Of a DNA stretch of 47,896 bases, positions 8,866 through 31,617 are shown in pieces. Made by a program: the position numbers and the translations under genes. The notes beneath the pieces are model-generated. The model was given only the letters and a program-made list of their open reading frames with translations. It ran no database searches and was not told the origin of the DNA. How positions within the stretch are numbered: the first letter of the stretch is position 1; every line of letters starts with the position of its first letter. The stretch comes from a virus (lineage: Duplodnaviria > Caudoviricetes). The stretch lies in IMG/VR virus record IMGVR_UViG_3300012943_000013, positions 1-47,896 of that record. One strand, written 5' to 3'.

Positions 8866-8979
8866 AACGCCTGCTCATCAAACCCACTCAGGTCTGACGA
8901 GCACGTCGTGGAAGGAACGGTGCCGCCGCGAGGATGTTGGCGCGCGTCCGACGGTTGGAGGCCGAAGGACGCGCACGCC

Positions 8980-9009
8980 TATGAGAGCATGGGGGCTAGC
9001 CCCCGTCAA
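8980..9009 (-). promoter_or_regulatory. putative sigma70-like promoter for capsid genes with a palindrome in the spacer
   Basis: Minus strand TTGACG-17 nt-TCTCAT; the palindrome GGGGGCTAGCCCCC lies in the spacer. Confidence 0.4.
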
Positions 9010-9039
9010 GCTGTACCACGGAAGTAGTACAGCTCGCGG

Positions 9040-9966: not shown

Positions 9967-10659
9967 TCACCACGAGTCGGCCACGTAGACCGACTGCTTC
10001 TTGCGGGCGACCCACTCGCCGTTATCGTTCTGGGCGACCTGGTGGCTGTACGCCTCGACGCCGCCGATGTCGACGATGCGCTCCTGCCCAGCGCGGATGC
10101 GTTCCATCAGTGATTCGTTGCCGGCGAGGTCACCGTCGCGCATCACGAGGTAGTGCATCGCCTCGTTGCCGATCGTCTCGCAGCGGCGCGCGAAGGGGAC
10201 GTTCTTGTTCGTGATGACGATGTCGCCCAGCTCGTAACCGTGGCTCATCAGGCGGTCGAGCGCCGTGAGCCCCGCGCTGATGAGCACGCCCCGGTTGCCC
10301 TCCTGCAGGTCCCGGAGCTTGGTCGCGTTCGGCTTGATGATGCCGCCCGTCGTCTTCTCCGCCTTCTCGCCATCCTCGATGCTGAGCGGGAAGACGAAGA
10401 TGCGGTCGAAGCTCGCCTGCACCTTGAAGAAGGCGTCGGTGATGCCGTGCTTCAGTCGAGCCGCTTCGAGGCGAGGCGGCAAGCCGAGAGCGCCCTCGGG
10501 GCTCATGTGCTCTTTGATGCGCTCGGTGCGCGCGATCGCCGCCTTCAGCTCCGGGTCTTCGAAGATGCGGTTCGCGCGCTCGCGCTCCTTCTCGTCCCAG
10601 GCGCTGGTCTTCTCCGGAGCCTTAAACTCGGGGAATGAGTAAATCGTCCCGCTGCTCAT
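9967..10659 (-). CDS. groES: GroES/Cpn10-like co-chaperonin with N-terminal extension
   Basis: 'DRIFV..EKTTGGII.P..GVLISAG..GDIV..YLVMRDGDL' matches the Cpn10 pattern including the mobile loop. Confidence 0.75.
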   Translation of the reverse strand: MSSGTIYSFPEFKAPEKTSAWDEKERERANRIFEDPELKAAIARTERIKEHMSPEGALGLPPRLEAARLKHGITDAFFKVQASFDRIFVFPLSIEDGEKAEKTTGGIIKPNATKLRDLQEGNRGVLISAGLTALDRLMSHGYELGDIVITNKNVPFARRCETIGNEAMHYLVMRDGDLAGNESLMERIRAGQERIVDIGGVEAYSHQVAQNDNGEWVARKKQSVYVADSW

Positions 10660-23942: not shown

Positions 23943-24322
23943 GACCGAGCCCCCGACACGAGGCCTACCTCGAGGCGATTGCAGCCCTCGTGGAGGCCCG
24001 GCAAACGCCTACCGCCACGGCCATCGCCGCTCGGCTCGGCGTGACCAAGCAGGCCGCGCACGAGGCCCTCGGCGCCATGGTCGAGAAGGGCGAGCTTCGC
24101 TACTCGCCCCCTCGCCAGGCCTCCTACAAGCTGCCCAAGGTGAAGCCAGAAACCGACTGGGCAGCGATCGCGCAGCGCAATGCCGAGCGGTTCGCGTCTG
24201 TTCCGCGTTGCCGTGCTTGTTGCGGCCGCCCGCTCCTCCGCGGGGCCAGCGACCAATGCCCCTGGTGCAACGCTCAGAACGGGATATCGTCGTCGTCCAC
24301 GTCGGGCGACGACGAGGGCTGA
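23927..24322 (+). CDS. winged-HTH (LexA-DBD-like) protein with C-terminal Zn ribbon
   Basis: 'PTATAIAARLGVTKQAAHEALGAMVEKGEL' plus CRAC..CPWC; AGGAGG RBS. Confidence 0.65.
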   Translation: MAASLRPSPRHEAYLEAIAALVEARQTPTATAIAARLGVTKQAAHEALGAMVEKGELRYSPPRQASYKLPKVKPETDWAAIAQRNAERFASVPRCRACCGRPLLRGASDQCPWCNAQNGISSSSTSGDDEG

Positions 24323-24681
24323 CCCGGGCGAGGTGAGGCCTGACCCTTGCGGTCGGGCCCGCCTCCCTGGAGCAGCACGTCGTTCGCCACGATTTCGGTC
24401 CGGAAGCGCTTCTCGCCGTCCTTCTCGTAGCTCGAGGTCGAGAGGCGCCCCTCGATGTAGAGCCTCGACCCCTTGTCTAGGATGCGCGAGAGGCCCTCCG
24501 CGCGCTTGCCGAAGATGGTGACGTTGTGCCACTCGGTGCGCTCCTGGCGCTGCTTGTCCTTGTCCAGGAATTGCTCGCTGGTGGCCAGCCTGAGCTTCAG
24601 CACGGCGCCGCCACCCGTCTGCTTCAGTTCGGGCGGGGCGCCGAGGTTTCCGATCAGTAGTACCTTGTTGAGTCCCTGCAT
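24274..24681 (-). CDS. ssb: single-stranded DNA-binding protein
   Basis: 'LNKVLLIGNLG','TEWHNVTIFG','KGSRLYIEGRL' and C-terminal DDDIPF. Confidence 0.97.
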   Translation of the reverse strand: MQGLNKVLLIGNLGAPPELKQTGGGAVLKLRLATSEQFLDKDKQRQERTEWHNVTIFGKRAEGLSRILDKGSRLYIEGRLSTSSYEKDGEKRFRTEIVANDVLLQGGGPDRKGQASPRPGQPSSSPDVDDDDIPF

Positions 24682-24687
24682 GAGGGC

Positions 24688-25050
24688 TCATTTACCACGT
24701 TGCAGGTCGGCTTTGGTGGCCACGAACCAACGCGGGCGCGCCGTCTCGTGTGTGGGGTCGTCGCACCCGTCACCGTAAAACTCCTTCCGCGGGCGCTGGC
24801 AGGCGTCGCAGAGCCCGAACGTGCCGCACGCATGGCACTGGCCCCCGTAAACGAAGATAGGGGCGTGTGCGCATGCGCTGCGCTGCTCGGGCGGCCACAG
24901 CTGCTCACTCAACACTCCCACGTGATGCTCCGCCAGGATGCTCAGTCTGCCCGCCAGAAGCCAGCAGCGGCTCGTCGGGGTCCACATCGCCACCTCCGCC
25001 ACCTCCGACCCGGGCACGTAGACCCAGTAGAAGCCCGCCTCGCGCGTCAC
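24688..25050 (-). CDS. hypothetical protein with Cys cluster
   Basis: 'REAGFYWV' start; coupled. Confidence 0.55.
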   Translation of the reverse strand: MTREAGFYWVYVPGSEVAEVAMWTPTSRCWLLAGRLSILAEHHVGVLSEQLWPPEQRSACAHAPIFVYGGQCHACGTFGLCDACQRPRKEFYGDGCDDPTHETARPRWFVATKADLQRGK

Positions 25051-25403
25051 GCCTGCACCCCGCGCTTGGGCTTGAGGTACATCGAGCGGATCGTCGCCTG
25101 CGCCTCTCGGATGTCGGCTCGCGTGGCCCCGGGCAGGTGCCGCATCTCATCCTCGGAGAACGCCACCAGGGCCAGCTCGGGGGAGAACTGCGCGACGCCC
25201 GCGCAGTAGATGCAAATCGAGATGTCGCCCGGCTTCGGCCGTACCACGCGGTCCTCGTGGGTGGCAGCGTCCATCACCTTGTGGCAGTGCGGGCATGGCG
25301 AAGGCGGCACGGCGTCCTCGTTCTCGCTCTGGTTCATGGCCTCGAGCACGCTCGCCAACCTGCGGTAGGAGGAGCCGGGCATGGCGCTGTATTTGGCCTT
25401 CAT
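25047..25403 (-). CDS. Zn-binding hypothetical protein
   Basis: CPHC...PKPGDISICIYC; ATG 2 nt after the upstream stop. Confidence 0.6.
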   Translation of the reverse strand: MKAKYSAMPGSSYRRLASVLEAMNQSENEDAVPPSPCPHCHKVMDAATHEDRVVRPKPGDISICIYCAGVAQFSPELALVAFSEDEMRHLPGATRADIREAQATIRSMYLKPKRGVQA

Positions 25404-25405
25404 GG

Positions 25406-25990
25406 TCAGCAACTGCAGCTGAAAAAGAAGTCGCTTTTGCCTTCGGCGATGGGCTTGCCCGTCACCACGGCGTAGAGCCGCCAAAACTCCTCGGCGGGCC
25501 AGCTGTAGTCGAGGTCGAAGCCGAAGTGGATGTACTCGCCCGATTCCAGGTACTCCTCCGCGCCCGACATGAGCCGGTCGAAAGAGCAGTCGCAGTCGAC
25601 TGCCAGCTCCCGAATGCGCGCCCGAGCGCCCTCCACCGTGCTGACGTCCAGCGGGGCCGCTGCCTCGGCATCGGGGAAGGCCGGGTGCGTCCAGACGTGC
25701 CGCAGCGAGCGCACCTGGCGCGGGTACATGACGAACCAGAAGCGCTGGCCCTTCTGCACGGGCCCCACCAGGAACGGGTCCACGATGCCGAGCCCTTTGC
25801 CTGGCTCCGCCAGCCGCGCGCGCCCGTCTTCCACATAGATGTGATCGCCCGGCATCAGCGCCATACCGGCCTCCACCGGCTCGACGGCGAGATGGATCGC
25901 GTCTCGGTGTTCGATGCGCGTGTGAATCTGGCCCAGCGTCTCGAGCGCGTCGGTCGTCACGCTGCGCTTGTCTCCGTGTGCTTCTGACAT
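25406..25990 (-). CDS. phage hypothetical protein
   Basis: GAGGAG RBS; 'RDAIHLAV','GIVDPFL','SLRHVWTHP', ends FSCSC. Confidence 0.75.
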   Translation of the reverse strand: MSEAHGDKRSVTTDALETLGQIHTRIEHRDAIHLAVEPVEAGMALMPGDHIYVEDGRARLAEPGKGLGIVDPFLVGPVQKGQRFWFVMYPRQVRSLRHVWTHPAFPDAEAAAPLDVSTVEGARARIRELAVDCDCSFDRLMSGAEEYLESGEYIHFGFDLDYSWPAEEFWRLYAVVTGKPIAEGKSDFFFSCSC

Positions 25991-26011
25991 TTGCTCTCCT
26001 CGGTTATGGGT

Positions 26012-26087
26012 TGGTGGAGGCGACGGGACTCGAACCCGTATCTCCTTGGGGATAAGCCCTGTTGCTCTTCCCTTGAGCTACGCCCCC
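26012..26087 (-). tRNA. tRNA-like RNA with Ala identity (G3:U70, A73, CCA) and non-canonical anticodon arm
   Basis: GGGGGCG-TA-GCTC-AAGGGAA-GAGC-[24 nt]-ACGGG-TTCGAGT-CCCGT-CGCCTCC-ACCA. Confidence 0.8.
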
Positions 26088-26094
26088 TGTGGCT

Positions 26095-26868
26095 TTAGAG
26101 GGCTGCCATGAGCTCGGCCTTCAGCTGCTCGAGGCGATGCTTGGCGGCGGCGATGTCCGCAACGATGTCCGCTACGGACCGCCCACCGCTGGTCAGCGGA
26201 GCACTCGCCAGTGGAGCGCTCGGCGGCGGCAGAGGCTGGCTCACCGGCGCTGCTGCTGCTGCTGCTGCTGCTTTGTTCGCGTGGAGCGTTGCCATGCGCT
26301 TGGCCGTCTTCTCAGCCTTGGCGCGCTCCATCTCCTCGGCCCGCACCCAATTCCCGAACACCGTCTTTTCCACTTCATGGCGCGCCGCAAACACGCGGTA
26401 CGTCAGCGTCGGGTCCTGCGCCCGCTCGTCCAGAAATGCCCTGGCCAGCTTCACGCGGTACTCCTCGTGGTACATCTTCCGTCCATCGGCGCCGATGGAC
26501 TTCACCCCTTCGGGCAGCGGCTTTGCCTTAGGCATCTCGACCTCCACCGGTGGCTCGGGCGCAGTGGGTGGCGCGGGCCTCGACAGCAGCGTCTCGTGCT
26601 CGGCCTTCACGGGTGGTGGAGGCTCGGAAGGCGCTGGCATCTGCGGGCGTATCAAGGCAACGGGAGCGCGGAGCACCGGCGTCTCCTCGCGGCGCCGAGG
26701 CGGGGGCGGGTCGCGACGCTCCGCGGGCTGCTCGACGTATCCCCGGTCTGGCCCGCTGTGTGATGACGGCGGCGGGCGCCGGTTGATGTCGTTGGCTCTC
26801 ATGTCGGCGCGCCAGTTGCCGCCCTTGGCGGCTATCGCATCTCCAAGCGTGGTTAGAGGCTTGCTCAT
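26095..26868 (-). CDS. Pro-rich protein with homeodomain-like HTH and C-terminal coiled coil
   Basis: 'YHEEYRVKL...TYRVFAARHEVEKTVFGNWVR'. Confidence 0.65.
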   Translation of the reverse strand: MSKPLTTLGDAIAAKGGNWRADMRANDINRRPPPSSHSGPDRGYVEQPAERRDPPPPRRREETPVLRAPVALIRPQMPAPSEPPPPVKAEHETLLSRPAPPTAPEPPVEVEMPKAKPLPEGVKSIGADGRKMYHEEYRVKLARAFLDERAQDPTLTYRVFAARHEVEKTVFGNWVRAEEMERAKAEKTAKRMATLHANKAAAAAAAAPVSQPLPPPSAPLASAPLTSGGRSVADIVADIAAAKHRLEQLKAELMAAL

Positions 26869-26949
26869 AGGCTCTCATTCGGTGTTCGGTTCCTGGTGTT
26901 GGGGCGAGGCGCGTTGCTCATGCACGCCTCGTGTCCCCCGGGTTGTCCT

Positions 26950-27078
26950 TCAGCGCAGTAGCGAGGCGAGCCCGCTCAGCGTGTCGGTGTGCAGTCTGTC
27001 GATGAGCCAGGCCGCGACCGTGAGCGGCACCAGCATGTGGATTGCGTACAATGTGCGAAGCTTGAGGTGGTTGAGCAT
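26950..27078 (-). CDS. small hydrophobic protein (42 aa, MLNHLKLRTLYAIHML...)
   Basis: GGAGG RBS plus ATG. Confidence 0.45.
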   Translation of the reverse strand: MLNHLKLRTLYAIHMLVPLTVAAWLIDRLHTDTLSGLASLLR

Positions 27079-27130
27079 CCGAGTCCTCCAGCGCCGGAGC
27101 GTGGCACCAGTGTGGCGCTCTGGTCCATCG

Positions 27131-27379
27131 CTAAGCGATGGCGCGCCGCTCGGCGGCGAGCTGCTCGTTGGCCACCCGCTCGCCGAGCAGGATGCCGAGC
27201 TTGTTCGCGAGATGATCGGCGAGCCGCTGCGTGATGAGGCCCCTTTCGTGCAGCATCGCGATGGCCGTAATGCTCTCTGCCGCCTCCTCCACCACGCCGG
27301 GGTCGAGCAGCCCCTCGCGTACCGACTGCTGCAAGTGCTCCCTGATGTGTGCTCCTAGCTCTCCGATGTTCGCGTTCAT
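27131..27379 (-). CDS. hypothetical helical protein
   Basis: ATGA-coupled 82-aa ORF. Confidence 0.6.
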   Translation of the reverse strand: MNANIGELGAHIREHLQQSVREGLLDPGVVEEAAESITAIAMLHERGLITQRLADHLANKLGILLGERVANEQLAAERRAIA

Positions 27380-27717
27380 GGCCCGCCCTTCTTGTTTTTG
27401 GGGTCCCTCTCGAGCGTGAGGCGCAGATCGTCCGGCATCTCGACCGTTCGTGCTTCGCTGAGCGGGGGCGGCGGCGCGTGCGTGAGCTGGAGGCTCTGCA
27501 CGTGCCGCTTGGCCCGCTCCTCGTGGAGGTTATCGAGACGCAGCGAGATGAGCTTCGCCACGTCGGCGTGCTTATCCAGCCGCTTGCCGATGACGTTCAC
27601 GACCACCAAGGCCGCGACGACCACCACGATTGCCAAGACGATGAAGGGCAGGAGCGCGAGCGCCAGCCCCTCGAGGAGGTCGAGAATATCCACCCCCCAC
27701 GTGTACCATGAGGGCAC
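27376..27717 (-). CDS. membrane protein (start uncertain)
   Basis: Long hydrophobic segment LALALLPFIVLAIVVVVAALVVV. Confidence 0.6.
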   Translation of the reverse strand: MPSWYTWGVDILDLLEGLALALLPFIVLAIVVVVAALVVVNVIGKRLDKHADVAKLISLRLDNLHEERAKRHVQSLQLTHAPPPPLSEARTVEMPDDLRLTLERDPKNKKGGP

Positions 27718-27774
27718 CGGCCCCTTGTAGGTGTCAAGTACCCTCCCCGCACGCTCACCCCTCCGGGTGAAGGG

Positions 27775-28308
27775 CTACGATGTGGGAGCGACCACGGCAG
27801 CCAATTGCGTCGCGAGCTGCTCGCACTCGTCCTTCACGTAATCGAGGCGACGGTAGCGCTCATCGCGGTCGAGCCACGAGTCCACCGTCAACGGCGGCTC
27901 GACGTAGGGCTTCCACGGGCGGATGCCACTCCGCGAGAGCCTCGCGTTGAGCCCTGGGCTGTAGTCGCCTGCATGCGAGCAATCGAAGCCGAGCCACCAT
28001 ACGTGATCGGGCTCACCCGGCGCGGGCACGTGGCAGATGTGGCCTGCGCACTCGGCCGCGTACGTGATGCCGCCGTGCGCGTTCAGCTCGGAGACGCGGT
28101 CGTCGTCGTTCTCGCCGCCCGTGCCCCAGCCGCTCTTGCCGTGCAACGGATGGCCCGGAGGTAACCCCACGTAGCCACACCACGCACCCATGGGGCCGCG
28201 CAGCGCTAGGCACACGAATCCCTGACTGCGCCACTCGACGCGGTCGGGCTCCTCTTGCCACGGACCCGGGCCCCAGTTCTCCTTCTTGTCGTCTTCCCGT
28301 TCAGTCAT
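27775..28308 (-). CDS. phage hypothetical protein
   Basis: 'GPWQEEPD','WCGYVGLPPGHPLHG','HGGITY','WWLGFDCSHAGD'. Confidence 0.8.
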   Translation of the reverse strand: MTEREDDKKENWGPGPWQEEPDRVEWRSQGFVCLALRGPMGAWCGYVGLPPGHPLHGKSGWGTGGENDDDRVSELNAHGGITYAAECAGHICHVPAPGEPDHVWWLGFDCSHAGDYSPGLNARLSRSGIRPWKPYVEPPLTVDSWLDRDERYRRLDYVKDECEQLATQLAAVVAPTS

Positions 28309-28939
28309 CCCTCTCGCTCTCCTTCCATTCGCAATTGCGGCATTGCACCGTGGCGACGCCGTTGACCAGCGTCAGTATGGCTCCGCCGTACACTGGACAG
28401 GCTGGGCACTTGCCGCCGCCCTGCAGGCCCTTGCCTTCGCCGAGTAGGCTGCGCACGACGCCCCAGAACGCCAGCTCCGGCATGCGCCTCGCCATGCCTC
28501 GGTTGGCGAGGCGCTGGTTCTCGATGCGCTGCTCGAGGCGCTTGCGCACCTGCTTGCTCTCGTCCAGCTCCGCCCGCAGCCGCTCGACCTCGGCGCTCAG
28601 CCGCGAGCGCTCCCTGACGAGCCAGCACACCGCGTCGATGCGCTCGTTGTGCACCGCGATGCTCGGGATGAGGTTGGCCAGCACTTCGAGGTGCCGCACG
28701 ACGGTAGCGTTGTCGTCCAGCAGCTTCTCGCCTGCCGCCATCACCTTGGCGTACAGCTCGGGCGGCAGTTGGGGCGGGGGCGATGCCAGCGCGCACTCGA
28801 GGCTCCCGCAATCGTTGCAACGGCCCCCATCGCCGACGTACCCGCTCACGCACGGCAGCTTCTCGTCGCTCATCGGTTGCCCTTCCCCTTGCCGCGGTTT
28901 CGGATCTCCCCGCTCTTCCCTGGTCACCGGCTTTCTCAT
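28301..28939 (-). CDS. hypothetical protein, coiled coil flanked by Zn fingers
   Basis: CNDC, CPAC..CRNC; start may be 28873. Confidence 0.6.
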   Translation of the reverse strand: MRKPVTREERGDPKPRQGEGQPMSDEKLPCVSGYVGDGGRCNDCGSLECALASPPPQLPPELYAKVMAAGEKLLDDNATVVRHLEVLANLIPSIAVHNERIDAVCWLVRERSRLSAEVERLRAELDESKQVRKRLEQRIENQRLANRGMARRMPELAFWGVVRSLLGEGKGLQGGGKCPACPVYGGAILTLVNGVATVQCRNCEWKESERDD

Positions 28940-29193
28940 CGCTTCCCCTTCGCCACCTTGAGGCGGATGGAGGTGATGGGCTTTAGCGCTTTGCGTCGCA
29001 CGCCGGGGTCAGCGATGGCGCCCTTCTCGTGCAGCTTCTTGAGCCGATAGCGCACGCCGGTCCAGTGCACGCCGAGGACCTTGGCGAGCTCGCGGAGCGT
29101 CGGCGGGTAGCCGTGCGTGAGCACGTAGTTGGTGTGAGCGGCCAGGGTCTCCTTTTCCCCCGTGGTCAGCTCGAGGTTCGGGGCTAGGGGCAT
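28936..29193 (-). CDS. LexA-type winged-helix repressor, DNA-binding domain only
   Basis: 'HGYPPTLRELAKVLGV..GVRYRLKKLHEKGAI'; 85 aa with no S24 peptidase; divergent from the xis/int operon. Confidence 0.75.
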   Translation of the reverse strand: MPLAPNLELTTGEKETLAAHTNYVLTHGYPPTLRELAKVLGVHWTGVRYRLKKLHEKGAIADPGVRRKALKPITSIRLKVAKGKR

Positions 29194-29448
29194 GCGTTCT
29201 GCGTTTCCTTCCGTTAACGTCTGGACTTGAGTAAACGGTTTATACATCATGTAGACACCGTGCCAGTTGATCAACCCCAATCGTCACCCCGCTGGGGGAT
29301 GTGTGGGGCGCGCACCCCCGCGCACCGAACTGACACGCTCGAGGCGTTTGGCCATGACACGTCACCGCCACGGTCTGTATACCGTAGCGGCCCGGTAGCG
29401 AGACGTAGCGCAGCACACGCTACGTCCGGACACAAGGAGGTGGAACCG
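29194..29448. promoter_or_regulatory. divergent control (switch) region
   Basis: AT-richer start, GTTTATACA motif (also at 32916), several inverted repeats. Confidence 0.55.
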
Positions 29449-29790
29449 ATGGACGAGTTTCTGGACAAGCTCGCCGAGGTCTTAGCTAAGAAACTGGCTA
29501 AGTGTCTCGGCGGGCCCGACGGCAATGCGTTGGTCGGGCAGGGCGAGAGCCCGCTCGGCCCACGCAAGCACTGCGCTGCTGTACGGCGCAGGCTGGCCCG
29601 CAGTGAAGGGGGAGCTGCCCGAGTGGGCAAGCGATATCTACTCACCCAGGAGGCGCTCCAGGCGGAGCTGCGGATGGAGAGCGGGCCCGTGAACGACACG
29701 GACCCACCCGCCGCCGCTGCTCTACCGGTCTCGGACCCCGAGGACGACGCCATCTACGAGAGCCTCCTGCGCAAAACAGGAAGGAAGTAA
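29449..29790 (+). CDS. excisionase-like / recombination directionality factor candidate
   Basis: AAGGAGG RBS; 'AARVGKRYLLTQEAL' wing motif; immediately upstream of the integrase. Confidence 0.5.
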   Translation: MDEFLDKLAEVLAKKLAKCLGGPDGNALVGQGESPLGPRKHCAAVRRRLARSEGGAARVGKRYLLTQEALQAELRMESGPVNDTDPPAAAALPVSDPEDDAIYESLLRKTGRK

Positions 29791-29794
29791 CGCA

Positions 29795-31066
29795 ATGGCT
29801 AAACCGGTGGAACAAGGCTACGAGATCAGGGTTCGTTTGGGCGGGGGAAAGCGCCTCGAGCGCAACATCCCCAAGACGCTGACGCAGACCCAGGCCGATG
29901 CTCGGGAAGAGGTGATCAAGGACCTCGCCCGCCTGCTCAAGGCCGCCGGTGACCCCAAGGCAGCACACATCATGCTGAGCGACCTCGCCACCGCCAAAAC
30001 GGTGGACGAGGGCGCCAAGCTCGAGAAGGCCATCCGGCGCTTCATTCGCGACAACACCGGGCGGGGCACCCCGTCCCCCCAGCCCCACATGATCACGTTC
30101 CGTGAATTCGGGATGCGGTGGGCGACGGGTCAGCTCGCCAAGGAGCACCCCCACTATCTGCGGGTCCCGAGCGACACCCACATGCGCAACAACTGCAGCC
30201 GGGTGCGCAAGCTGAGCGAGACCGTCGGCGACGTGCCGCTGGTGCTGTTCACCCACGAGGATGCCAAGCGCGCGCTCGCCGCTGCCACTCGCAAGGACGC
30301 GAGCAGCACGACGTTCCGTCATCACGCCCAGGTCATCCAGACGATCCTGCGCAAGGCCATCGAGCCGTGCGGGATCATCAAAGCCGAGAAGTACCCACTC
30401 CCCTGGAAGGGCTTCCTCCCCGTCATCGAGGCGCCCCCCATGTACCCCATCCTGTTCCCCCGCGAGGACCGCTCGCTGCTCGGCGAGTCGGACATCCCGC
30501 CGTGGCGCCGGGTGCTCTATGGGTTCTCCGTCCGTGAGGGGATGCGCGTGTCGCATATGTTCCGCCTCAAGTGGGGCAACGTCGACTTCGAGAACGGCAC
30601 CATCACCGTCGGCATCGGCAAGAACAACGCCGACGCCCGCAGCTGGGACCTGAACGCCGGGGTGGCCAAGGTGCTCTACCAGTTCAAGGGCGGGGCCAAG
30701 GCCCGCGACTTCATCTTCCCCCGGCTCGACCACGACGAGATCGTCGAGCTCGCCGAGGGGCTGCGCACCGACCTCAAGCGGGCGGGGCTCGAGCGAGCCG
30801 ACCTGTTCGCCAGCGGCGACGGGCAGGAGCCCATCCGCTTCCAGGACCTGCGAGCCACGTTCGTCTCCCTCCACCTCGCCATGGGGTGGAGCGAGGTCGA
30901 CGTGATGCTCCGGACCCAGCACACCAGCACCACCGTTCTCCACCACCGGTACGCCCGGCGGCTGGCCCTCGCGAAGACCATCGTGAAGCGCCAGGGCCCC
31001 CTCCTTCCCCTGGACCAGGTCCTGAAGGGTGGGGGGAGCCGTGGGGGTAGTGTCCAAGGAAACTAA
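29795..31066 (+). CDS. int: tyrosine integrase
   Basis: 'GMRVSHMFRLKWGNVDF', 'FQDLRATF', 'QHTS...RY'; attP directly downstream. Confidence 0.92.
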   Translation: MAKPVEQGYEIRVRLGGGKRLERNIPKTLTQTQADAREEVIKDLARLLKAAGDPKAAHIMLSDLATAKTVDEGAKLEKAIRRFIRDNTGRGTPSPQPHMITFREFGMRWATGQLAKEHPHYLRVPSDTHMRNNCSRVRKLSETVGDVPLVLFTHEDAKRALAAATRKDASSTTFRHHAQVIQTILRKAIEPCGIIKAEKYPLPWKGFLPVIEAPPMYPILFPREDRSLLGESDIPPWRRVLYGFSVREGMRVSHMFRLKWGNVDFENGTITVGIGKNNADARSWDLNAGVAKVLYQFKGGAKARDFIFPRLDHDEIVELAEGLRTDLKRAGLERADLFASGDGQEPIRFQDLRATFVSLHLAMGWSEVDVMLRTQHTSTTVLHHRYARRLALAKTIVKRQGPLLPLDQVLKGGGSRGGSVQGN

Positions 31067-31269
31067 TCGATTCAGCATGATTTACGGTACGCCCGGAGGG
31101 AATTGAACCCCCGACTAGCGGATTAGAAATCCGTCATGGCGCCAATGGCGCCCGTTGGTGGTCTAAAAACTCCGAGTAATCCTCCTCCAGGCGCCACGAG
31201 CGGCGCCTACCCCCACCCGTCCGAAGCCAGGGTGGGGGTAGCTGGGAGGGGGGTATGGGGGGAGCCGTG
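31030..31269. repeat. 14-bp direct repeat TGGGGGGAGCCGTG flanking the attP core (putative integrase arm sites)
   Basis: Copies at 31030-31043 and 31256-31269; GTGGGGGTAG also occurs on both sides. Confidence 0.6.
31085..31134 (-). mobile_element. attP: attP core: 3' half of tRNA-Arg(UCU)
   Basis: Minus strand ACGGA-TTTCTAA-TCCGC-TAGTC-GGGGG-TTCAATT-CCCTC-CGGGCGT-ACC; no D arm or 5' acceptor strand. Confidence 0.88.
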
Positions 31270-31329: not shown

Positions 31330-31617
31330 ATGCAAGCAGACCGACCCTTACCGCCTCGTCCGCCCACCGCTCGCCGCGTCACCAAGAAGCAGATCGAGGT
31401 CCTGCAGTTCATCCTCGACCACCAGGGCAAGCACGGCGTCGCCCCCACCCGGATCGAGATGCGGGTCCACTTCGGGTGGCGCTCGACGTTCTCGTCCGTC
31501 ACCCACATCGAGTCCCTCGCTCGCAAAGGGCTCGTGACCTGGACCCCGACCAAGGCCCGTACCCTCAAGGTCACCGAGGCGGGGCGCATGGCGGCGCGGA
31601 TGGGGGGCTCGCTGTGA
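31330..31617 (+). CDS. LexA-type DNA-binding domain protein (no peptidase)
   Basis: 'TKKQIEVLQFI..HGVAPTRIEM..HFGWRS..HIESLARKG..KARTL'; AAGGAGG RBS. Confidence 0.85.
   Translation: MQADRPLPPRPPTARRVTKKQIEVLQFILDHQGKHGVAPTRIEMRVHFGWRSTFSSVTHIESLARKGLVTWTPTKARTLKVTEAGRMAARMGGSL

Follow-up and report, generated by a model that had tools for sequence, protein, structure and literature searches.

A phage-borne family of tRNA-like RNAs with an alanine-type acceptor and a rebuilt anticodon arm

The RNA gene and the phage that carries it

The window (the whole stretch of DNA analysed, 47,896 nt) is a complete temperate phage from soil, with a GC content of 67 %, a 123-nt terminal repeat and genes for terminase, portal, integrase, SSB and endolysin. 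Capsid identity to annotated phages was at most 30 %, so none of them is close, and 40 loci with capsids 76–93 % identical to that of the window were present in IMG/VR. The host is tentatively placed in the Polyangiaceae, as judged from two Polyangiaceae-named relatives of the window proteins, one capsid (83 %) and one integrase (30 %); the capsid cluster also holds two actinobacterial bins with Microcella and Agromyces names, and the SSB and Atlas searches for a host found none. The head module contains a GroES-like gene (9967-10659, minus strand) with a weak PHROG match (E 7e-4), which is 42–63 % conserved in most relatives. The features relevant to this work are as follows.

26095..26868, minus strand: Pro-rich, HTH-like ORF of 257 aa upstream of the RNA gene, its stop codon 7 nt before the RNA
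26012..26087, minus strand: tRNA-like RNA gene of class A (see below), with Ala acceptor identity, a rebuilt anticodon arm and encoded CCA
26081..26087, minus strand: 5' strand of the acceptor stem (G1 G2 G3), pairing with 26016-26022 to give G3:U70
26064..26078, minus strand: D arm, 4 bp and a 7-nt loop with conserved GG, 9/12/23 covariation
26040..26063, minus strand: 24-nt middle, with C27-G43, an internal loop (G29 and A41 invariant), a G/C upper stem, the loop and the variable region
26052-26054, minus strand: triplet UAU of the loop C32 U33 U34 A35 U36 C37, within the 24-nt middle
26023..26039, minus strand: T arm, A49-U65, C50-G64 and G51-C63, predicted EF-Tu binding about -10.8 kcal/mol
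26015, minus strand: A73
26012-26014, minus strand: CCA
25406..25990, minus strand: downstream 194-aa ORF, phrog_11912, of unknown function, its start codon 21 nt past the CCA
31086-31134, minus strand: 3' part of a tRNA (Arg(UCU)-type loop and T arm), 20 nt beyond the integrase stop

The 76-nt gene at 26012-26087 is tRNA-shaped, with G1-C72, G2-C71, G3:U70, A73, CCA, a 4-bp D stem and a 5-bp T stem. The initial annotation had described an intact acceptor, A73, CCA, D stem and T arm around 24 nt devoid of an NGC anticodon, and both parts of this description were borne out. It was the sole tRNA call in the window, where a second copy of the same class was looked for and not found. ARAGORN called it tRNA-Ile(UAU) with mismatches A28.A42 and G29.A41, and the Rfam tRNA model matched it with 45.8 bits, leaving the anticodon arm unaligned. 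A genuine tRNA-Ile(UAU) would combine UAU with a canonical arm and a purine at position 37; C37, only three of five stem pairs and an acceptor of Ala identity were found instead. The fold z-score of the RNA was -2.87, with equally good shuffles in 2 of 200 cases. One public contig, possibly the source of this DNA, spans the gene without any difference. A relative with 10 substitutions and 6 gaps, the listed ones (5 and 4, respectively) lying in the middle arm, is present on a contig of another study, where a second tRNA-like 3' end follows it.

Since the RNA gene lies so closely behind one ORF and ahead of the next on the same strand, excision of the RNA from a longer transcript is probable; the region 24000 to 30000 showed no promoter-like site. 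Homologues of the HTH-like ORF lie upstream of most family copies, yet they are also present elsewhere without the RNA. An obligate protein-RNA module was rejected, as the gene was matched in 8 of 29 records, among which G001, G006, G015 and G022 have no RNA. The phrog_11912 ORF showed no linkage to the RNA among the relatives: the 25 loci with its homologue held no class A copy and other tRNA genes in five.

The tRNA fragment at 31086-31134 is likely the attP of the phage. Comparable fragments in relatives (G006, G013, G015, G027, G007 and G010) are of Arg(CCU), Arg(CCG), Arg(ACG) or Ala(CGC) type. The RNA at 26012-26087 was rejected as attP: it is a full gene with covarying relatives, 3.7 kb from the integrase, and the separate tRNA-Arg(UCU) 3' fragment beside the integrase is 5 kb off. 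The integrase itself is flanked by two small repressor-like HTH genes, at 28936-29280 (minus strand) and 31330-31617 (plus strand).

A family with a conserved body and a rebuilt anticodon arm

Rfam tRNA searches, pattern scans and a covariance model built on 19 copies were combined to assemble the family termed class A, which comprises 22 distinct sequences, including that of the window, from about 16 phage loci. Patterns fixing G3:U70 yielded 12 of the copies; the other ten are the window copy, six found with Rfam and three found with the model. The Rfam tRNA search of 28 related records gave 11 tRNA-like genes in five records, all with irregular arms, and six of these genes, in four records, belong to class A. 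Judged by their contig names, eight metagenome loci come from a single campaign. A tblastn match to a window protein was obtained for 12 of 17 family loci tested versus none of 12 control loci, the HTH gene being the commonest match. Most class A loci are linked to the phage clade of the window, usually behind the same HTH gene, and their flanks have a GC content of 64–70 %.

The RNA is accessory: it is carried by two of ten near-complete relatives, and G022 has the upstream gene alone. Tandem arrays of three copies were found in G019 and in L129, in each case with different loops. CCA is encoded in the window copy only (1 of 22). Acceptor, D-arm and arm types occur mixed, and the L084 copy, which has two acceptor mismatches, joins two acceptor types; this suggests that modules may be shuffled. 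A weak G3:U70 acceptor-like match (E 0.09) at L245:120-200, upstream in G027, is possibly a decayed class A copy.

The species-genome collection gave no family copy among 16 matches to an exact, and hence limited, pattern. Exact and near-exact patterns of the window RNA had no match in viral_contigs, and blastn against annotated phages returned short tRNA-end matches only. No description of the class A family was found in the open-access literature, to the extent that it was covered; the figures of irregular 7/5 tRNAs in the supplements of PMC5389517 may bear on the novelty of the family.

The G3:U70 pair suffices for charging by AlaRS whatever the anticodon. In all 22 copies the pairs G1-C72, G2-C71 and G3:U70 were unchanged and in 21 A73 was kept; the window RNA has all four of these features of a canonical tRNA-Ala acceptor. 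Pairs 4:69, 5:68, 7:66 and 49:65 swap. G3:U70 is also present in each of the ten copies obtained otherwise than by the G3:U70-fixed patterns. When viral contigs were scanned with no constraint on the acceptor (66 loci), seven family copies were recovered, every one with G3:U70, and no copy with a different pair. Charging by AlaRS is predicted from G3:U70 alone.

Paired cells amounted to 99 % (19 copies), and the covariation score was 0.436 versus 0.191 after shuffling, with none of 500 shuffles as high; since the copies are related and apparently shuffle modules, the cells are not independent events, and this relatedness inflates the shuffle control. The base triple 9/12/23 covaries (A-U-A in nine copies, C-C-G in nine, C-U-G in three and C-A-G in one), and U48 accompanies A15 in 10 of 16 copies and G15 in none of six (p=0.015). 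Predicted EF-Tu binding, calculated with the pair energies of PMC3239215 and a base value of -10.1 derived from its Table 3, ranged from -10.3 to -11.2 kcal/mol in class A. It equals or exceeds the means for tRNA-Ala (-10.0 to -10.3 kcal/mol) and is tighter than that of tRNA-Ile (-9.4 kcal/mol for tRNA-Ile(GAU)) or tRNA-Arg(UCU).

The anticodon arm is a different matter. A full arm of 5 bp and 7 nt was present in none of the 22 class A copies versus 37 of 40 control tRNA-Ala genes (the other distinct hits of the same pattern, after removal of three misparsed loci, L109, L112 and L157). An NGC triplet was found in 38 of the 40 controls; a canonical tRNA-Ala has this triplet together with a 5-bp stem and a 7-nt loop, and no class A copy forms five pairs. 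In the subtype with a 22-nt middle (seven copies) the arm has a 3-bp stem, paired without exception (21 of 21 cells) and with two-sided changes at each of its three pairs; it closes an 8-nt loop with an invariant UAAGC core. The eight copies of the window's subtype keep C27-G43, G29, G30, U33, U36 and A41, and Y32, like U33 and U36, is present in all eight. When folded with a 3-bp stem, a 6-nt loop and a 1x2 internal loop, they were 90.6 % paired (8 of 500 shuffles), in comparison to 62.5 % (126 of 500 shuffles) in the canonical register. An exception is L129:1843-1916, with a complete 7-nt loop of tRNA-Arg(CCU) type.

The anticodon arm is thus rebuilt into conserved alternatives and is not random. 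The initial annotation had advised a search of relatives for a conserved body with a variable anticodon arm, and the 22 copies display it; random decay across all arms was looked for, and the covariation of acceptor, D and T pairs and of tertiary contacts speaks against it. The earlier description of the arm as collapsed holds insofar as the canonical arm is lost, but "rebuilt and conserved" is the better term; C27-G43 is retained by all eight copies of the window's subtype. The proposal that the determinants of processing, alanylation and EF-Tu binding are kept while canonical decoding geometry is lost is supported by the acceptor pairs, by the predicted T-stem energies and by the lack of canonical arms throughout the family.

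Other unusual tRNA-like genes were observed as well. Those of class B, in the same phage clade (L066:1501-1576 and 1619-1692, L067:1413-1576, L068:1501-1578, L169:378-571 and L265 near 6000 on the minus strand), vary in acceptor and discriminator; in L066-L068 they lie between the scaffold gene and the next head gene. In one group a 5-bp stem carries a 9-nt loop that does not vary; the remaining members have odd arms, and some T loops have U at position 56. Where relatives hold class B, the window has a 174-nt gap (8866-9039) with inverted repeats discernible by eye and no tRNA match. Unrelated phages of 39–42 % GC carry a G3:U70 tRNA-like gene (L172:1494-1563, L187:1494-1562 and L226:197-266, also L212, L214 and L230) that has a shrunken loop and G73, lacks CCA and adjoins another odd tRNA-like sequence; it is possibly an independent parallel. 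In two Acidobacteriaceae MAGs (L151:5001-5072 and L153:5001-5072) a tRNA with G3:U70 has an irregular arm and shows a triplet that is not of Ala type. The phage gene at L166:1501-1572 (the same as L011:14515-14588) is tRNA-like too; its arm is short, with a 6-nt loop, and it has a non-Ala acceptor and U73.

Displayed triplets and comparison with known RNAs

The triplet behind the U-turn is UAU in the window and UCU, CCU, UGU, UAA or UUA in other copies. The initial annotation had left the choice between UUA and UAU; the register set by the homologues (C32 U33 U34 A35 U36) gives UAU and discards UUA, and with it the suggested ochre reading by the window copy lost its support. Loop positions 3–5 of 11 distinct loops correspond to the codons AUA (2), AGA, AGG (2), ACA, UUA (3) and UAA (2). 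Among the 61 sense codons of the phage (11,809 codons in total), AUA is the rarest and AGA the second rarest, with six occurrences each, and UUA ranks 4th, ACA 8th and AGG 21st. The mean log10 frequency of the matched codons was -0.23 versus 0.46 in within-loop shuffles (p about 0.001), a rare-codon match that is suggestive only, since the loops are related, the register was picked after inspection and the longer loops (L071a-c and L148) were omitted.

Codon usage of the carrier phages, based on crude ORF calls, showed no clear avoidance of the displayed codon. AUA made up 1.2–2.5 % of Ile codons in the three UAU carriers versus 1.9–10.7 % in the 11 most complete non-carriers, and UUA was not depleted in three of four UAA carriers. 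Such a lack of clear depletion would be in keeping with an RNA that seldom decodes.

Among known RNAs, the allo-tRNAs and the mini-tmRNA of phage DS6A come closest, and class A belongs to neither group. The allo-tRNAs (Mukai et al., PMC5389517) constitute the nearest functional parallel. They share with class A an anticodon-independent identity (some have G3:U70), rare-codon anticodons (predominantly UAU, besides others that match AGA/AGG, UUA/CUA and UAA), an origin in soil metagenomes, polycistronic location and, within the UAU group, destabilised stems. They differ in their 8/4 or 9/3 acceptor branch, long V arm, Sec-like D arm, mostly Ser identity and location near TA systems, whereas all class A copies have a 7/5 branch, a short variable region and Ala identity, together with a normal D arm and a rebuilt anticodon arm, and are phage-borne. 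An identity mismatched to varied rare-codon anticodons is common to both, with the class A register assigned post hoc. The CDS-less tmRNA of DS6A (PMC11915505) resembles class A in being phage-borne and short, with an Ala-type acceptor and T arm and no normal anticodon; class A departs from it by its covarying D stem, anticodon-like loops and the lack of a UUCGAC motif.

Phage tRNAs with an anti-defence function are a further point of reference. The tRNA-Lys of T5 counters PARIS (PMC11464382), and tRNA-Tyr and tRNA-Lys counter retron-Eco7 and PrrC (PMC11555353); background on tRNA cleavage in defence is given in PMC13692257. Like class A, such tRNAs are accessory, have altered anticodon stem-loops and are tied to tRNA-targeting defence (PMC11464382 and PMC11555353; as a hypothesis in PMC10264068). 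According to these three papers they act by replacing the cleaved tRNA and not as decoys, and hence are cognate, decoding replacements, whereas in class A, as far as can be read from the sequences, acceptor identity and triplet disagree and the arm is non-canonical. Reassigned mitochondrial tRNA-Ala (PMC7609411) likewise combines G3:U70 Ala identity with a foreign anticodon, but serves codon reassignment across a whole genome, whereas the class A triplet varies between copies and even inside one phage.

Possible functions of class A RNAs

The reading we tentatively prefer, at somewhat short of an even chance, is that class A RNA acts as an alanylated, poorly decoding decoy against a host tRNA-targeting defence. 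By the established rules for tRNA, the RNA would be cut from an early phage transcript, processed by RNase P and the CCA enzyme, charged by AlaRS regardless of its anticodon and bound tightly by EF-Tu. G3:U70 would keep it charged whatever triplet its loop shows, and the distorted arm would limit misinsertion of alanine. With efficient decoding by such U34 anticodons, Ala would probably be inserted at AUG or ACG too, both frequent in the phage (19 and 35 per 1000 codons, respectively), so poor decoding is the expected state, and this favours the decoy reading. The rare-codon loops may mimic minor tRNAs attacked by a nuclease or another tRNA toxin; alternatively, only such triplets may be harmless. 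Accessory distribution and arrays with varied loops fit the typical pattern of counter-defence cargo. The decoy option of the initial annotation is thus in line with a conserved charging half and a lost canonical decoding geometry; its mistranslating-tRNA option stands too, as the keeping of Y32, U33 and U36 and the loop of L129:1843-1916 would fit real decoding equally well.

Such decoding is the main rival, possible though rather doubtful. Class A would then consist of modular Ala-charged missense or nonsense adaptors against the rarest codons of the GC-rich host, weakly reading AUA in the window copy and AGA, AGG, ACA, UUA or UAA (ochre) in relatives, and would be active only when the cognate minor tRNA of the host is depleted or cleaved; or they would corrupt AT-rich host defence genes and spare the GC-rich phage, similarly to the selective damage proposed for allo-tRNAs in PMC5389517. 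The match of the loop triplets to rare codons or ochre (p about 0.001) and the retained Y32, U33 and U36 argue for it, as does the shared anticodon set of the allo-tRNAs, some G3:U70 members of which insert Ala in E. coli (PMC5389517). The part of the claim that fares badly is the decoding geometry: the arm departs from the canonical form in every copy, with a 6-nt loop favoured in the window's subtype and a 3-bp stem and 8-nt loop in the other, and allo-tRNA(UAU) with destabilised stems was inactive in translation according to the same source. The rare-codon bias, drawn from related loops with a post hoc choice of loops and register, would also follow from selection against harm, and the carriers show no clear codon avoidance. 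An antagonist of tmRNA, which as a mini-tmRNA like that of DS6A would compete for SmpB or stalled ribosomes and block tagging of phage proteins, is unlikely. The acceptor and T arm of the window RNA match RF00023 with 36.1 bits (E 1.2e-14), five copies scored best against this model, 10 of 22 middles contain UAAGC, and a 9-nt match to a conserved tmRNA motif was found in one of the 22 copies tested (shuffle p=0.0005). Yet every score is below the cut-off of 47, the best copy matches at the acceptor/T-arm end only, and the search also fires in archaeal control genomes. tmRNA has no D stem, and its stemless D loop goes with UUCGAC; class A has a true, covarying D stem, and none of the 22 copies contains the motif. 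A tag frame is lacking as well, and the suggested co-occurrence with AANDN motifs did not hold: they were found in three of six RNA-bearing records (G036 and G007 pooled) versus five of 16 RNA-less ones. The tmRNA-mimic suggestion is weakly supported by the acceptor and T-arm resemblance, with the CDS-less form of DS6A as a precedent (PMC11915505). The window has five ANDN/AANDN motifs, at about 9864, 13545 and 13816 (minus strand) and 31980 and 33049 (plus strand), in the scaffold, portal, terminase, a replication ORF and a small ORF; they presumably resemble tmRNA tags and also occur in relatives without the RNA.

The location of the gene allows another, improbable explanation, in which the tRNA shape would draw RNase P and 3' nucleases to tune an early polycistronic transcript, charging being incidental. 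The tight spacing between two ORFs, the lack of a promoter-like site in 24000-30000 and the absence of encoded CCA from 21 of 22 copies are in agreement with it; the invariant G3:U70, the EF-Tu-tuned T stem, the conserved loops and the tandem arrays with varied loops would be left unexplained, and the same upstream gene lacks the RNA in G022. A decaying tRNA-Ala pseudogene, a remnant of an integration site or an assembly error is largely refuted and very improbable. Absence from most relatives and the mismatched acceptor of L084 would suit decay, but pairing extends to 99 % of the cells, with compensatory changes, and covariation is seen in the rebuilt arm as well; many independent contigs carry the family RNA, and the likely attP is a separate fragment. 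The least probable explanation, an Ala donor for a non-ribosomal transferase in lipid or cell-wall aminoacylation, can hardly be upheld. Such donors need Ala identity without decoding, which class A would offer, but the scan of 24 window proteins against PHROGs named no transferase. The T stem, moreover, is of a type predicted to bind EF-Tu tightly, whereas such donors are suggested in PMC3239215 to evolve weaker binding, and this option of the initial annotation was not supported.

Class A is a real, conserved phage RNA family, a variant among irregular, identity-mismatched tRNAs, for which we infer a function. Annotation tools report its members as tRNA-Ile, tRNA-Leu/?, tRNA-Phe or pseudogenes, so such families are easily missed. 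Phage tRNAs are generally thought to act by replacing host tRNAs; conservation of the charging and EF-Tu half together with a rebuilt decoding half suggests a role other than replacement. If the adaptor reading were true, deliberate codon-selective mistranslation would be a phage weapon. The 22 natural variants, with their swapped modules and varied triplets, make the preferred decoy role, mistranslation and tmRNA antagonism directly testable.
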